Below are positions 5,341 through 36,867 of a stretch of DNA of 37,509 nt, piece after piece; the stretch's first letter is position 1, and every line of letters starts with the position of its first letter. Position numbers and translations under genes: made by a program. The stretch covers positions 1 through 37,509 of the forward strand of contig LCEQ01000004.1 of NCBI GenBank assembly GCA_000994805.1, in the 5' to 3' direction. The DNA comes from Candidatus Azambacteria bacterium GW2011_GWA2_42_9 (GTDB taxonomy: Bacteria; Patescibacteriota; Minisyncoccia; UBA10092). The notes beneath the pieces are model-generated. The model saw only the letters and a program-made list of their open reading frames with translations. It ran no database searches and was not told where the DNA came from.

Positions 5341-7341
5341 ATGGCTAATAAATTAGAAAACATTCTCTCAAAAATAATAAAATATGGCCTTTACGCTATT
5401 TTATTGACGCCTTTAGCTTTTTGGCCCAGAGCGCTTTTTCCGTTTTTAACGCCAAAATTTATTTTATTCCAGATTTTAGTTGAAATCGTTTTCGCCGCCT
5501 GGCTCATTCTTCTTTTTAGAAGCGGATTAACGCGGATTTTAGCGGATTTACGCAGAAATTATGTTGCAATAGCATTATTTATATTTTTACTGGCATCATT
5601 TGTTTCGGCGTTATTTGGTGTTGATTTTTCAAGAAGTTTTTGGGGTATCGGGCCGAGAATGACCGGATTGTTTGCGGAATTGCATTTTCTGGCGTGGTTT
5701 CTGATGCTTGCCAGCGTATCGAAGTCCGACTTCGATATGGTGCGATATTTAAATTTTTCATTTTTTGTTTCTTTGGTGGTGGCGGCTACGGCTTTTTACC
5801 AAAATTCAGAGTGGGGACTATCGTTCGGTTACGGCATATTTAACAATCCTACATTTGTCGCACCGTATTTAATTTTTCATTTTTTCTGGAGCCTTTACCA
5901 AATGCTAAGCTCCAAGAAATGGTTTTTTGGCGCTGGCACGGCACTTCTTTTGTTTGTAATTATATTCGCCCAGATCCGTGGCGCTGTTTTAGGGTTTTTT
6001 ATTGGAATTTTTGCCCTTGGCATCGGCCTGATTTTCAGTGACATCTTAAACCGGCGTTCAAGGATTCTACTTTCTACTTTCTACTTTCTACTTTCTATAA
6101 GTTTAATTGGCCTTTGGTATTTGCGCGATAATCCGGCCGTTCAAAAATTCAGTCCGATAAAGCGCGTAACCGGTATCTCCCTGCGGGAGACCACCGTCCA
6201 AACGCGAATTTTGGCCTGGCAAGTTGCCTTAAAGGGTTTTCCAGCCATGATTTTACTTGGTACCGGACCTGAAAACTTCAATTTTCTTTTTAACGCCCAT
6301 TATAATCCTGAATTTTTGAAATTTGGAGGCGGGGGATTCGGCGAAACATGGTTTGATAAGCCGCATAATGTATTTTTGGAAGTTCTGGCGGAAACCGGAA
6401 TTACGGGAATACTGGCCTATTTTTTCATCTGGCTTGCCGCTGTTTTTGCTTTATATAAATTATTCAAAAGTGGAGAGAAACTGCTCCCAATGATTTTAAC
6501 AGGCGCTTTTATTTCTTATTTTGTTTCCGTCTTTTTTTCATTCGACAGTTTTGGTTCGTGGTTCGGACTTTATTTATTTTTATCGTTTTTAGCGTCGCTT
6601 AGTAATAATGCTAATCAAAATTTGGGATTGCGAATATCGCAAATTGCTAATACTGTTTATTTGCAATTAGCATTATTCGCAATTGTTATGATTTCATTGG
6701 CATTATTATATATAAATTACTCAATCTGGCGCGCCAATGTAGCCGATGCCGACGCACTGCGGATTTTTTCCAAAAGTCCCGCTCAAAGCATTGTTTTATT
6801 TAAAAAATCTTTAACTTATTTTTCTCCGTATAAACCGGAATACCAATTTGACCTAATCGCTTCAGTTTCCGGAGCGGTAGAAAAAGGAATACCGCTTCCG
6901 AATTTGGAAGATATGATTAATTTTTCTCTAAGCGAGGCCGACAAAGCGGTCGCGGCTCATCCTAAAGACGCGGCCAAATATACCGATATGGCCAGGATTT
7001 ATAATATTTTAGGGACAAAAGGGCGCGACCCAGAAATTTTGGCGCAGGCCGAAAGTTTCGGTAAAAAATCACTGGAACTGAGTCCGAACCGGCAGGAGAC
7101 CTTTTATTACTTGGCACGGACGGCGCTTCTTAAAAATGACGCTAAATTGGCGATAAAATGGACAAACCAGGCGGTTGAAGCCGATCCGACCATCGGCCAG
7201 AGCCACTGGTATTTCGGCTTAACTTATATCGCTGATGGCCAAAAAGCAGCCGGCGTCGCCGAAATTAAAAAAGCTATGGAGTTGGGTTATAGTCCGCAAA
7301 ATAAAAACGAAACCGATTTTATTAGAAATTTGGGATTGTAA
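5341..7341 (+). CDS. O-antigen-ligase-like (Wzy_C family) polytopic membrane protein with a C-terminal TPR domain
   Basis: 666 aa with about 10-12 hydrophobic segments. Wzy_C-like motifs are IRGAVLGFFIGIFALG and DKPHNVFLEVLAETGITGILAYFFIW. The C-terminal ~200 aa are TPR-like (AAKYTDMARIYNILG.., ETFYYLARTALLKNDAKLAIKW.., QSHWYFGLTYIADGQ). Confidence 0.75.
   Translation: MANKLENILSKIIKYGLYAILLTPLAFWPRALFPFLTPKFILFQILVEIVFAAWLILLFRSGLTRILADLRRNYVAIALFIFLLASFVSALFGVDFSRSFWGIGPRMTGLFAELHFLAWFLMLASVSKSDFDMVRYLNFSFFVSLVVAATAFYQNSEWGLSFGYGIFNNPTFVAPYLIFHFFWSLYQMLSSKKWFFGAGTALLLFVIIFAQIRGAVLGFFIGIFALGIGLIFSDILNRRSRILLSTFYFLLSISLIGLWYLRDNPAVQKFSPIKRVTGISLRETTVQTRILAWQVALKGFPAMILLGTGPENFNFLFNAHYNPEFLKFGGGGFGETWFDKPHNVFLEVLAETGITGILAYFFIWLAAVFALYKLFKSGEKLLPMILTGAFISYFVSVFFSFDSFGSWFGLYLFLSFLASLSNNANQNLGLRISQIANTVYLQLALFAIVMISLALLYINYSIWRANVADADALRIFSKSPAQSIVLFKKSLTYFSPYKPEYQFDLIASVSGAVEKGIPLPNLEDMINFSLSEADKAVAAHPKDAAKYTDMARIYNILGTKGRDPEILAQAESFGKKSLELSPNRQETFYYLARTALLKNDAKLAIKWTNQAVEADPTIGQSHWYFGLTYIADGQKAAGVAEIKKAMELGYSPQNKNETDFIRNLGL
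5522..5551 (+). repeat. Imperfect decanucleotide tandem repeat x3 inside the ligase-like CDS
   Basis: GCGGATTAAC GCGGATTTTA GCGGATTTAC. The 30 nt are in frame and encode GLTRILADLR between two TM segments. Confidence 0.8.
6065..6097 (+). repeat. Heptanucleotide tandem repeat (TTCTACT)x4 plus TTCTA inside the ligase-like CDS
   Basis: TTCTACT TTCTACT TTCTACT TTCTACT TTCTA(TA) read directly. It encodes ILLSTFYFLLSI. The unit length is not a multiple of 3. Confidence 0.9.
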
Positions 7342-7364
7342 GCTCTCTGTAGGTTGGATGGTTT

Positions 7365-34508: not shown

Positions 34509-36867
34509 GCCGAAATAAAGGGATTATTGTTTTGATATTTTTTATCGCTATTTTGTCGGGGATTTTTTGGAATCAAAAAATATTCGGCCAGCCGATAAGT
34601 TCCGATCAATTGGGCTATGACGGCATTGCCATGGACATATTAAGCAGCGGCCGGTTTACCAGTCAAGGCCAGTCGACATTCAGAGAACCGGGCTATCCTT
34701 TGTTTTTGGCGGCAGTTTATAAGATTTTTGGCCATAATTTTGATACTGTCAGATATATTCAGATTATAATTTTTGGACTATTGGTGGTTATTATTTATCT
34801 TTTTACCGAAAATATTTTTGGCCGAAATGTCGCGATTTTTTCAAGTTTAAGCGTGGCATTTTTTTACGGCCTTGCCAATCAATCCGGTTTAATTACGACA
34901 GAACTTTTATTCGCGTTTTTACTTAGTCTTTTTGCGTACTCTATTTATAAAGCGTCGGCGGAAGACGGTAATAACTGGCTGGTTTTTTCTGCGCTGGTTT
35001 TGGGAGGCGCGACTCTGGTTAGGGGTGTGGCCGAATTTTTGTTTTTTTTAGTTATTGTTAATCTTTTTATAATTTATAAAAACAAAATTTCGTATAAGAA
35101 GATTTTTTACAAAATCGCGATTTTTACTATTTGTTTTTTTATGGTTTTAACGCCCTGGCTTGTAAAAAATAAATTTAAAAACGGCATTTCCGTTTCATCG
35201 TTTACCGGCTATTATCTATTGTTGCAAACCGAACGAATAAAAGAATTGTATCCGCATTATTCCGGTCATTTTATAGGTTACTTTCTTGGTTATTATGTTT
35301 CGGAGCGGTTAAATTTTGATACCGGCCCCGGCGATAATAAATATTTTTCTTATTTTGAGAGCCCGATTCAGTCAAGGATAGCGCAGCTTATTGCCGCGGG
35401 CTATGATTACGGCGATATCAGCAATGTTTTTACCAAAGAAGCCCTGCCCCAAATTGTTAAGCACCCCGTGCAATTTTTATCGGTGTCGGCGCTGAATTTT
35501 TTCAGTTTCAATGGTCCGATTTTAATACGGGGGCCGCTTTGGCAAAACGGGGCCGATCTCTCTCCCCAGTTTGCCGACGGTCGCCATCCAGAAATTCCTG
35601 ATTATCTGAAACTGATTATCATTCTGACCCCGCGCCTGCTGTGGTTTTTATTTTTCTTTTTTACAATAAAATCAATAGTAAAAAATCTTTGCGACTGGGA
35701 AAAAGTCGGTTGGCTTGTTTTAATAATCATTTATTTTAATATTATATACAGCGCGTCTTCAGGACTCAATCGCTATGCTCTGCCGATTTATCCCTTTTAT
35801 ATGATTTTTGCCGTTGCCGGAATGCAGGATTTTTTAAGCCGGCGGATTGTCGTGAAATTAAAAAACGCATCGATTTTGGCGCTTGCGGTCGCTAAGTTTG
35901 TTTTTAAAGGCAGAGCCGATAAAAAAATAATCCCCAAAAAAATTTTAATAGTTCAGGAGGCTAGAATGGGAGATATGGTTTGTACAACTCCGATGTTTCG
36001 GGCTGTAAAGGAGAAATATTCAGAAATTCGGCTTTACGTGATGGGGAATGAAATAAATAGAGAATTATTATCTAGCAATCCCGACGTTGATGTTTATTTA
36101 ATCTATCCTAAAAATCTTTATGGACTTTTTAAAATAATCAAAAAAGAAAAGTTTGATTTTGCCTGCATTACAGCTCCTAATTTTACGGCTTTGGCCGCCT
36201 TATATTTAGCGGATATTCCTTTGATTGCCGCGCCCGTTATTGAAAATGGTTTCAGCCCGTATGAAACCCGTCCCTATAAAATTTCACGCAGTTTTGTAAC
36301 CACAAGTTCGCAGAGGCATTTTTGGCAAAAAACGGCATAAACTTCGATTCAGATTTTATTGTTGGCATAACTCCGTCGGCCGGAAGTAAAATTAAAGAAT
36401 GGCCTTGCGACAGGTTCGCCAAGCTTGCTGACTATATTTATAGTAAATATCAGGCTAAAATCATAATTATCGGCGGACCCGGCGATGTTGAGGTTGATGA
36501 AATGATAAGTTTTTTGGCGGAGAATACGAAGTTTGTCAACGCCAAGGGGCTTTTTGATATTGAAGAGTTGAAAGCATTGGTGTCAAAACTGCATCTTTTC
36601 ATCAGTGTTGACACCGGTCCAATTTATATCGCCGAGGCCTTTAATGTTCCGACCATTGATATTATCGGGCCTATGGATGAAAATGAACAGCCGCCTATGG
36701 GCAAATTCCACAAGATTGTCGTTGCTCAAAGGTTAAAACCAGCGTTACATATAATGAACGCCCGCGTTTATGACGCCAAGGAAGTCCGTCGGCAGGCCGA
36801 ATCAATCACGGTGGAGATGGTCATAAAAGAATTGGATAATTTAATGGATAAAATCTCAATTTCATGA
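34505..36867 (+). pseudogene. GT-C (ArnT/PMT_2-like) membrane domain fused in frame to a GT9 (heptosyltransferase-like) domain; the GT9 part is split by a -1 frame change near 36280-36300
   Basis: In ORF 34505-36340, aa 1-~445 are polytopic GT-C-like (SSDQLGYDGIAMDILSSGRF...FREPGYPLFLAAVYKIFG). From about aa 470 comes the GT9 N-terminal half, KKILIVQEARMGDMVCTTPMFRAVKEKY. ORF 36322-36867, in another frame that is open from 36280, carries the GT9 C-terminal half (IVGITPSAGSKIKEWPCDRFAKLADYI..IIIIGGPGD..LFISVDTGPIYIAEAFNVPTIDIIGP). An internal ATG at 35822 could start a separate GT9 product. Confidence 0.65.

Follow-up and report, generated by a model that had tools for sequence, protein, structure and literature searches.

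Organization and integrity of the locus

The DNA analyzed here, hereafter the window, is a stretch of 37,509 nucleotides (contig LCEQ01000004.1, GenBank assembly GCA_000994805.1) from Candidatus Azambacteria bacterium GW2011_GWA2_42_9, an uncultured, ultrasmall groundwater bacterium. It carries the core of a conserved locus of ∼45 kb in which the gene for a Thr/Ser-rich candidate surface-layer (S-layer) protein is followed by genes for a Wzy_C membrane protein, five membrane glycosyltransferases (GTs) of the GT-C type, two GT2 enzymes that resemble Dpm1, and a set of cytoplasmic GTs, sugar-modifying enzymes, and nucleotide-sugar enzymes. Every open reading frame (ORF) of the window was scanned against Pfam and NCBIfam, which reproduced the inventory of an earlier note on this DNA (two Dpm1-like GT2s, six GT4s, four methyltransferases, and two deoxysugar branches); an Rfam scan of the window gave no match. 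Between positions 5341 and 36867, ∼99% of the sequence is coding and every gene is glycan-related; the grouping is not due to chance. Gaps longer than 60 bp occur in the window only at 1338-1928, 5195-5340, 15339-15530 (a deletion artefact, see below), and 36868-36981, and so little non-coding space excludes a missed gene of the size of gtrA.

The same locus is present in GCA_000998395.1 (LCDE01000002.1), GCA_001774195.1 (MEZA01000006.1), and many ENA and JGI assemblies, and close homologs of the window proteins carry the names Azambacteria or Parcubacteria (other loci and single proteins are cited below by L and P numbers). A BLASTN comparison of the window with other assemblies of the same population returned 99.8-99.9% identity, interrupted by four deletions. 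Missing from the window are 139 bp (position 2598), 92 bp (15316/15317), ∼112 bp (near 36305), and, near 4306, between 11 bp (as compared to L008) and ∼56 bp (as compared to L007). These four deletions are assembly artefacts and not biology. They break the surface-protein gene, truncate the gene at 14460, and split the gene at 34505 into two ORFs (34505 and 36322). Pseudogenes or programmed frameshifts were considered as an explanation and rejected, since the sister assemblies carry 11-139 extra bases at exactly these points and their genes are intact.

A surface protein and a Wzy_C-TPR protein at the head of the locus

The first gene (1929..5194, plus strand) encodes a candidate S-layer or surface protein. 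Its parts are a signal peptide, a short coiled coil, one PG_binding_1 domain (35.8 bits against a Pfam cut-off of 23), and a body rich in Thr, Ser, Ala, Gly, and Val. The body spans ∼950 residues with few charged residues and is composed of ∼13.5% Thr, ∼11-12% Ser, and ∼10% each of Ala, Gly, and Val, a composition that accounts for the local G+C content of 52%. Thr and Ser together make up 24-26% of the protein, as compared to ∼10% in neighboring proteins. The protein has no PDB match, no Pfam domain besides PG_binding_1, and no SLH domain. The earlier note had described a T/S-rich gene of about 1,090 codons; the composition holds, whereas the reading frame lies in three pieces in the window and is intact at 1138-1154 aa in L007, L008, and L015.

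A non-coding stretch of 591 bp (1338-1928) precedes the surface gene. Within it, the small upstream gene ends at a hairpin with an 18-bp stem, one mismatch, and a trailing T-rich stretch (1343-1381), and several sigma-70-like sites (e.g., 1607-1635 and 1779-1807) lie upstream of the start. Both features are consistent with a surface gene that may be transcribed independently and strongly. The body of the gene (window 2598-5197) is 89-91% identical at the DNA level to L014, from another Azambacteria genome (6681-9211, GCA_016186325.1), whereas the flanking genes are only 67-77% identical (Wzy_C, 69%), and identity to L005, which belongs to the window's own population, falls from 100% to 96% exactly at 2598. 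This pattern suggests recent recombination or strain mosaicism in the part of the protein that is probably exposed; a chimeric assembly could also produce it.

The second gene (5341..7341, plus strand) encodes a membrane protein of the Wzy_C family, which includes O-antigen ligases, O-oligosaccharyltransferases (O-OTases), and polymerases, followed by C-terminal tetratricopeptide repeats (TPR) that were also found by Pfam. The Wzy_C match scored 50.3 bits against a cut-off of 31.7 (2.9e-13). A family profile built from 38 homologs matched the WaaL ligase (7tpg, 1.1e-12) and, over a longer stretch, a 610-residue chain deposited as 'Oligosaccharyltransferase' (9rmk, 6.5e-12); R213, R289, D339, and H342 are invariant among these homologs. 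The protein itself represents Wzy/ligase logic; the earlier note had recognized no Wzy-polymerase logic in the locus. That note had also counted six polytopic proteins of GT-C or ligase type, of which five are GT-Cs and the sixth, at 5341, is instead this Wzy_C protein. By hydropathy count it has ∼13 transmembrane (TM) helices, and the TPR domain would therefore lie outside the membrane. The Wzy_C family acts on glycans linked to undecaprenyl diphosphate (Und-PP). In a distant Patescibacteria genome, a Wzy_C-TPR homolog (31% identity) stands back-to-back with a phosphoglycosyl transferase (PGT) of the Bac_transf family, a neighborhood that fits the use of Und-PP-linked donors. The C-terminal TPR domain, a feature of protein O-OTases (PMC2943079), and the conserved adjacency to the surface gene are suggestive of a putative protein O-OTase similar to PglL and WsfB.

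This adjacency is part of a longer conserved order. In the window, L014, L015, and L055, the genes run from the surface protein to Wzy_C-TPR, a GT4 on the minus strand, a GT4, a deacetylase, a methyltransferase, two GT4s, two GT-Cs, a GT2, and a methyltransferase; in L014, L015, and L055 the series starts, as in the window, with a lamin-tail domain (LTD)/beta-helix protein and a small protein before the surface protein. The order is kept even though the Wzy_C proteins of these three loci are only 56-62% identical to that of the window. A similar arrangement is found in a distant relative, L019, where the Wzy_C-TPR protein shares 28% identity: the gene for a Thr/Ser-rich protein of 1282 aa, weakly homologous (E about 1e-5) to its counterpart in the window, precedes one for a TPR protein that stands alone and then the Wzy_C-TPR gene. 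This arrangement recalls the wsaA-wsaB order of Geobacillus stearothermophilus. The link to the surface protein proposed in the earlier note thus gains the support of synteny in four Azambacteria lineages and in this relative.

Five GT-C enzymes, two of them from new families

The locus encodes five GT-C enzymes, three recognized by family match and two by predicted structure. All are polytopic, as judged from hydropathy segments in each of the five and from at least 11 long helices in both predicted models. The first of the three family-matched enzymes (13210..14469, plus strand) is of the DUF2079/PMT_2 type (DUF2079 7.8e-8, PMT_2 3.1e-5), lies above the DUF2079 cut-off only, and has Asp40-Asp41 after the first TM helix (TM1). 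The second (22622..24208, plus strand) is above the PMT_2 cut-off (28.4 versus 26.1 bits), has Asp40-Glu41 after TM1, and weakly matches a protein O-mannosyltransferase in NCBIfam. The third (34505..36867, plus strand) also exceeds the PMT_2 cut-off (7.5e-15) and is fused to a heptosyltransferase-like GT9 domain (Glyco_transf_9 1.7e-18; PDB match 3tov, 2.7e-22). Split in the window, it is an intact protein of 825 aa in L001, L002, L004, and L017; the GT9 enumerated in the earlier note is thus present, not as a gene of its own but as the C-terminus of this fusion.

The GT-C–GT9 fusion is rare, with ∼6 fused members among the top 150 representative clusters; the closest cluster (85% identity) is unfused, and among other Azambacteria genomes L016 is unfused while L017 is fused. 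By our count, the GT9 domain follows an even number of TM helices and should therefore face the cytoplasm. There are hints that it may use ADP-heptose. In L017 (19731-21194), where the fusion is kept, PfkB-kinase and cytidylyltransferase-like genes that resemble the two halves of HldE are found nearby.

The remaining two proteins (14460..15530 and 32775..34508, both plus strand) have no Pfam or NCBIfam match, belong to families found in Patescibacteria only, and were assigned to the GT-C fold from AlphaFold2 models searched with Foldseek. The 32775 protein has ∼11-13 TM helices and a C-terminal soluble domain of ∼190 aa. Its model, based on a 62-sequence alignment, reached a pLDDT of 94.2 and a pTM of 0.92, and matched DPY19 (E = 8.7e-7), STT3, AftA, PglB, AglB, ArnT, Pmt4, Emb, and AftD in the PDB with TM-scores of ∼0.5, as compared to ∼0.1 for transporters. 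The 14460 protein, of which 292 aa remain in the window, was modeled at its intact length of 386 aa from 51 sequences (pLDDT 89.1). Its top 19 Foldseek PDB matches are all GT-C structures, including AglB, STT3, PglB, ALG3 (TM 0.52/0.52), AftB, Pmt4, and ALG9. PimE, AftA, AftB, AftD, and Emb all occur among the fold matches of the two models. We considered whether the two proteins are hidden flippases and rejected this, since the models match GT-C structures and WzxE and MurJ reached TM-scores of only ∼0.15 in the 14460 search.

Acidic residues directly follow TM1 in all five GT-Cs, and in four of the five they form an adjacent pair. In this first loop, the 14460 family has an invariant D51-E52 and the 32775 family a near-invariant D53 with E54 next to it, and the 34505 protein instead has spaced Asp residues (D34, D39, and D44). 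The GT-C character and first-loop acidic motif expected in the earlier note are therefore borne out, with this one variation. The W[WYF]DxG (WWDxG) motif of oligosaccharyltransferases (OSTs) is found in none of the five. An assignment as OSTs of the STT3/PglB/AglB type (GT66) was rejected, because this motif is missing and the OST fold matches span only the shared GT-C core (TM ∼0.5).

Two GT2 enzymes paired with GT-Cs

Two GT2 enzymes are putative polyprenol-phosphate sugar synthases. The first (15531..16301, plus strand; Glycos_transf_2 3e-19) is Dpm1-like, with the Pyrococcus furiosus dolichol-phosphate (Dol-P)-mannose synthase DPMS as its best PDB match (5mlz, 4.5e-6). This match is weaker than that of the second enzyme (28904..29599, plus strand), which is Dpm1/GtrB-like and matches DPMS (5mlz, 5.3e-18), GtrB (5ekp, 1e-11), and ArnC. 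The best NCBIfam matches of both are AglJ, Dol-P-hexose transferase, PpgS, and PgfS, all below the equivalog cut-offs; each of these families makes lipid-phosphate-linked sugars. C-terminal hydrophobic tails are readable in both sequences.

Each GT2 adjoins a GT-C gene. In every assembly, the 15531 gene lies directly 3' of that for the 386-aa GT-C at 14460. In two other Azambacteria genomes (L016 and L017), the gene for a GT2 of the 28904 type runs into the beginning of that for the 32775-family GT-C, whereas in the window the CDP-sugar genes sit between the two. In addition, P0079, a protein from other Patescibacteria, carries a GT2 homolog (E = 5e-18) as an N-terminal fusion to a 32775-family GT-C. 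This is good comparative evidence for two couples of synthase and GT-C, as they would occur in multi-component transmembrane glycosylation, and the earlier proposal of extracytoplasmic steps fed by polyprenol-phosphate sugars is well founded. By extension from these neighboring or fused GT2s, the five GT-Cs are predicted to use lipid-phosphate-linked sugars.

Cytoplasmic glycosyltransferases, modification and nucleotide-sugar enzymes

Six GT4 enzymes are encoded. The first, a cytoplasmic enzyme of the Leloir type (7365..8597, minus strand; Glycos_transf_1 2.6e-42, Glyco_transf_4), is followed on the plus strand by GT4s at 8598..9560 (Glycos_transf_1 1.9e-18), 10992..12104 (1.1e-45), 12117..13223 (1e-42), 24205..25260 (5.2e-24), and 25851..26993 (5e-21). 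Between them lies a DUF2334/NodB-like deacetylase (9561..10319, plus strand; DUF2334 3.2e-41, Polysacc_deac_1 1.2e-8), which has no signal peptide and is therefore presumably cytoplasmic; its best NCBIfam match, a GlcNAc-phosphatidylglycerol deacetylase, scored 40.7 bits, far below the cut-off of 280. S-adenosylmethionine (SAM) methyltransferases are encoded on the plus strand at 10303..10995 (Methyltransf_11/25), 16301..17218 (Methyltransf_23 3.3e-25), and 25261..25854 (Methyltransf_11 2.1e-10). The fourth methyltransferase (17199..18452, plus strand; Methyltransf_13 and Methyltransf_14, 2.8e-51) is a nucleoside diphosphate (NDP)-hexose C-methyltransferase of the TylCIII type.

The nucleotide-sugar genes form two branches. 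On the plus strand, the dTDP branch consists of a dTDP-glucose 4,6-dehydratase (RmlB, 18461..19516; TIGR01181, 385 bits versus 365) and two dTDP-4-dehydrorhamnose reductases (RmlD), at 20568..21458 (TIGR01214, 308 versus 224) and 26993..27868 (RmlD type, 262 versus 224), all above the equivalog cut-offs. It is accompanied on the same strand by an NAD-dependent sugar epimerase/reductase of the short-chain dehydrogenase/reductase (SDR) type (19523..20566; Epimerase 3.9e-36), an SDR-type NDP-sugar dehydratase/epimerase (27876..28895; GDP_Man_Dehyd 8.4e-46), and a cupin of the FdtA/WbuC type that is a putative NDP-4-keto-6-deoxyhexose isomerase/epimerase (22158..22625; FdtA 1.2e-7; WbuC 8.9e-8, below cut-off). 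The CDP branch occupies the minus strand at 29612-32728, with a CDP-glucose 4,6-dehydratase (29612..30712; TIGR02622, 481 bits versus 278), a glucose-1-phosphate cytidylyltransferase (30717..31493; TIGR02623, 293.7 bits, just below the cut-off of 300.25), and an RfbH-like pyridoxal phosphate enzyme (31505..32728; DegT 2e-72; RfbH NF011936, 346 bits versus 423). The latter is predicted to be either a CDP-4-keto-6-deoxyglucose 3-dehydrase or an aminotransferase.

A conserved 210-aa protein with no Pfam or NCBIfam match (21500..22132, plus strand) contains the motif 'APPFHQAR'. In P0160, a region with 62% identity to it (residues 414-624) is joined to the C-terminus of a 14460-family GT-C. P0160 was considered as a GT-C–GT2 fusion and rejected as such, since its additional domain is of the 21500 type. 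As P0160 comes from a metagenomic contig of 2 kb, read-through may explain the join in place of a true fusion.

Flanking genes and missing export functions

In the window ORFs, Pfam detected no Bac_transf, Glycos_transf_4, Polysacc_synt/MVIN, GtrA (PF04138), MATE, ABC, or Wzz match, in line with the earlier note, which had found no Wzx, Wzz, ABC exporter, or WbaP/WecA-type PGT. That note had also asked whether such a set lies immediately outside; no PGT, Wzx, GtrA, ABC exporter, or Wzz was found in the next ∼8.5 kb to the right, and no PGT, Wzx, or ABC set within 2-10 kb to the left. The window and flanks thus hold neither a dedicated flippase of a multi-component system (GtrA, Wzx, or MATE) nor the set of a Wzx/Wzy- or ABC-dependent pathway (PGT with Wzx, Wzy, and Wzz or with Wzm and Wzt), of which Wzy_C alone could polymerize. 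No LCP ligase was found in or near the locus.

To the right, the locus runs on past the window for up to 8.5 kb (L001, 10510-18509). The first genes of this extension encode another GT4, a methyltransferase, and a NUDIX hydrolase; these are followed by a cytidylyltransferase–phosphoenolpyruvate mutase fusion and a phosphonopyruvate decarboxylase–Fe-alcohol dehydrogenase fusion, and lastly by a conserved 441-aa protein without Pfam match and a polysaccharide deacetylase. This right-hand module looks like one for a nucleotide-activated phosphonate (2-hydroxyethylphosphonate-type) decoration of a glycan. Independent assemblies (L001-L004, L015, and L055) all end at nearly one place, ∼8.5 kb past the window, and even the 374-kb and 280-kb scaffolds of related genomes stop ∼30-40 kb past Wzy_C. 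A repeated or hypervariable element of some kind seems to be located where the locus ends distally.

To the left of the surface gene (window 27-1337; L015, 1806-6016; L055, 1074-5545), the upstream genes are conserved as well. They encode a protein of ∼1225 aa with a lamin-tail domain and a beta-helix, of which the window has the C-terminus only, and a protein of ∼190 aa with a weak DeoR-like helix-turn-helix. A Y1 transposase lies just beyond both genes in relatives.

A proposed route to a glycosylated surface protein

Taken together, our current hypothesis is that the locus most likely serves to coat the adjacent large, wall-anchored surface protein of these monoderm Patescibacteria with a complex glycan, as a hybrid of a Gram-positive S-layer glycosylation (slg) cluster and multi-component transmembrane glycosylation; we place the probability of this reading at about 0.5. 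In the order of steps that we propose, the dTDP- and CDP-hexose branches would supply 6-deoxy and possibly 3,6-dideoxy and C-methyl-branched sugars. On the inner side of the membrane, the six GT4s and the cytoplasmic GT9 domain would assemble an oligosaccharide on polyprenol-(di)phosphate, and O-methyltransferases and the deacetylase would modify it there. The lipid-linked glycan would then be flipped by a transporter encoded outside the locus. On the outside, the five GT-Cs would add or extend residues with polyprenol-phosphate monosaccharides made by the two Dpm1-like GT2s, and the Wzy_C-TPR protein would transfer the finished glycan, the likeliest acceptor being Ser, Thr, or Tyr residues of the peptidoglycan-anchored, Thr/Ser-rich surface protein encoded just upstream. 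Our data establish the family or fold of each component, the pairing of GT2s with GT-Cs, and the conserved gene order, from which the sequence of steps, the donors, the topology, the acceptor, and a PGT and a flippase encoded elsewhere are inferred.

The presence of seven cytoplasmic Leloir transferases (the six GT4s and the GT9 domain), two nucleotide-sugar branches, and a cytoplasmic deacetylase implies that much of the glycan is assembled intracellularly on a lipid carrier. The earlier view that the glycan is assembled mainly from lipid-phosphate-monosaccharide donors does not agree with this inventory, to which a further GT4 just outside the window can be added and which includes only two GT2 synthases. 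Because Wzy_C proteins use Und-PP-glycans and a homolog stands beside a Bac_transf PGT, a PGT and a flippase encoded elsewhere are the simpler expectation. Initiating enzymes are often encoded outside the cluster that they serve, as for wecA of Escherichia coli and tagO of Bacillus subtilis.

Several points weigh against this hypothesis. A PGT, a flippase, or an exporter was found neither in the ∼46 kb of the locus nor in the flanks of four relatives. A pattern scan of genome contigs with the Patescibacteria Bac_transf protein encoded beside the Wzy_C-TPR homolog returned 35 loci, 32 of them from Patescibacteria lineages and none from Azambacteria, although the method is insensitive and this is weak evidence. 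The five GT-Cs are far above the number in any described slg cluster, Wzy_C proteins can also act as polymerases or as ligases on non-protein acceptors, and the surface protein is a putative S-layer protein and a predicted glycan acceptor only. We nevertheless give less weight to the alternatives of a wall polysaccharide, a lipoglycan, and a wholly extracytoplasmic route, mainly since these leave either the synteny of Wzy_C-TPR and the surface gene or the many Leloir enzymes unexplained.

Foremost among these alternatives, and itself rather unlikely in our estimate, is a secondary cell-wall polysaccharide or teichoic-acid-like polymer, with Wzy_C-TPR as its polymerase or ligase, GT2/GT-C side chains as in the rhamnose-rich polysaccharides of lactococci and streptococci, and a surface gene linked only as a fellow envelope function. 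Gram-positive loci for wall polysaccharides typically combine GT4s and rml genes with methyltransferases and GT2/GT-C modules for side chains (PMC8035078), Wzy_C is also found in polymerases and ligases, with a match to WaaL (7tpg) as strong as that to the oligosaccharyltransferase, and the surface protein itself would bind peptidoglycan through its predicted PG_binding_1 domain. However, neither an LCP ligase nor a Wzx, Wzz, or ABC exporter was seen in or near the locus, the order of surface protein and Wzy_C-TPR is tight and recurs even in a distant lineage, and a TPR domain on Wzy_C is a feature described for protein O-OTases (PMC2943079).

Clearly less probable is a lipoglycan similar to mycobacterial lipomannan (LM) and lipoarabinomannan (LAM) or to glycosylphosphatidylinositol (GPI), in which GT4s would act on a membrane lipid, the DUF2334 enzyme would de-N-acetylate GlcNAc, and the product would be flipped and extended by GT-Cs, with no need of a PGT. 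GT4s, a Dpm1-like synthase, and several GT-Cs without PGT or Wzx are the logic by which phosphatidylinositol mannosides (PIM), LM, and LAM are made (PimA/PimB', Ppm1, PimE, Mpt, Emb, and Aft). The gene set agrees with this logic, PimE, AftA, AftB, AftD, and Emb are among the fold matches, the deacetylase is presumably cytoplasmic with a GlcNAc-phosphatidylglycerol deacetylase as its best match, and a phosphonate module adjoins the locus. That match is far under its cut-off (40.7 versus 280 bits), however, and a lipoglycan would leave both Wzy_C-TPR, from a family that handles Und-PP-glycans, without a role and the linkage to the surface gene unexplained.

About as improbable, or slightly more so, is a pathway free of both a PGT and a dedicated oligosaccharide flippase, in which the Dpm1/AglJ-like GT2s would initiate on polyprenol monophosphate, as in the S-layer N-glycosylation of haloarchaea, and the GT4s and GT9 would extend. 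The new GT-Cs, in place of a canonical OST, would deliver mono- or oligosaccharides either to a membrane lipid derived from the host or to the surface protein. If true, this would constitute archaeal-like or GPI-like surface glycosylation in a bacterium, in which the phosphonate module would supply a phosphoethanolamine-like decoration.

The least probable is the version of the earlier note, in which GT-Cs that use polyprenol-phosphate monosaccharides would form the glycan directly on surface-protein Ser/Thr, with essentially all steps extracellular, PMT- or PgtC2-like initiation, stepwise extension, and no PGT or oligosaccharide flippase: the five GT-Cs and two Dpm1-like GT2s, the O-glycosylation of Ser/Thr-rich regions by GT2 and GT-C pairs in streptococci (PMC12041528), the weak match of 22622 to a protein O-mannosyltransferase, and the lack of a PGT or flippase in the locus speak for it, but two lipid-phosphate-sugar synthases stand against seven Leloir transferases that need a cytoplasmic lipid-linked acceptor, Wzy_C-TPR is present, and the surface Ser/Thr residues, judging from composition, would lie in a folded beta-rich body and not in a disordered linker.

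Comparison with known glycosylation systems

The slg clusters of Firmicutes, described for G. stearothermophilus NRS 2004/3a and Paenibacillus alvei (PMC2943079), share several features with the Azambacteria locus. Their O-OTases WsaB and WsfB carry Wzy_C with TPR repeats in the same protein (as in WsfB and PglL) or in a separate one, an S-layer gene such as sgsE or sgtA lies close by, the clusters include rml genes, methylation functions, and several cytoplasmic GTs, and in P. alvei the undecaprenyl-phosphate-glucose (Und-P-Glc) synthase WsfH and the membrane transferase WsfD add a branch for which the cluster holds no flippase (PMC2943079). A candidate S-layer gene, Wzy_C-TPR, RmlB, RmlD, GTs, and methyltransferases are found in the window, whereas its ORF scans revealed no ABC exporter, PGT, RmlA, or canonical RmlC. 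Unlike the slg clusters, the Azambacteria locus has neither the Wzm/Wzt exporter nor the WsaP/WsfP PGT; it has five GT-Cs in place of one, two of them from new families, as well as a GT-C–GT9 fusion and genes for CDP-dideoxy and C-methyl sugars. Its surface protein, which relies on PG_binding_1, has no relationship to SgsE or SpaA, and its host belongs to the Patescibacteria.

In multi-component transmembrane systems (GtrABC, CsbB/GtcA/YfhO, GacI-L, and ArnC/ArnT; PMC8035078, PMC11127046), a membrane-associated GT-A/GT2 enzyme makes a polyprenol-phosphate sugar that a polytopic GT-C transfers on the outside, and the synthase and GT-C genes are adjacent. The two Azambacteria pairs, with fusions in relatives, resemble these, but the locus lacks a flippase of the GtrA, Wzx, or MATE type, contains three additional GT-Cs without a synthase of their own, and has GT-Cs from unannotated families.

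The pathways for PIM, LM, LAM, and arabinogalactan in mycobacteria and corynebacteria (PimA/B', Ppm1, PimE, MptA-C, EmbA-C, and AftA-D) likewise combine many GT-Cs fed by a Dpm1-like synthase with GT4s that catalyze early steps; the lipoglycan arm needs no PGT or Wzx, and Aft, Emb, and PimE recur among our fold matches. In contrast, the Azambacteria locus gives no indication of a phosphatidylinositol anchor or of decaprenyl-phosphate-arabinose, and it has a Wzy_C-TPR protein and a linked surface gene in one compact locus.

The Agl pathway of Haloferax volcanii (AglJ, AglG/I/E, AglB, and AglD/AglR/AglS; PMC5867893) offers a third parallel beyond the slg clusters. There, a Dpm1-like GT2 starts on polyprenol monophosphate so that a PGT is unneeded, cytoplasmic GTs extend the glycan, GT-Cs act outside, a second lipid-phosphate-sugar adds the last residue, and the target is an S-layer protein. 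AglJ is the best NCBIfam match of both Azambacteria GT2s, although at 80.6 and 44.9 bits they remain far below its cut-off of 325. Unlike this system, the Azambacteria GT-Cs carry neither the WWDxG motif nor the OST C-terminal domain, and the host is a bacterium with a Wzy_C enzyme.

The enzyme classes and overall logic of the locus are known, in a combination unusually rich in membrane enzymes; known glycosylation logic is extended here, not overturned. What is new is the combination in a single locus of an slg-like head, five GT-Cs, and two GT2/GT-C couples, together with its phylogenetic setting. To our knowledge, the cell envelope of the candidate phyla radiation (CPR)/Patescibacteria is essentially uncharacterized. 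CPR cells show a periodic surface layer by cryo-electron microscopy and have no outer membrane (PMC7906910). Our analysis puts forward a specific protein as a candidate for the S-layer, along with a machinery for its putative glycosylation, and it adds two previously unannotated GT-C families, confidently predicted in structure and restricted to Patescibacteria, and a rare GT-C–GT9 fusion. It also suggests that recombination is concentrated in the surface gene. Patescibacteria live attached to hosts and are preyed on by phages, and a surface glycan is therefore a plausible determinant of host and phage specificity.

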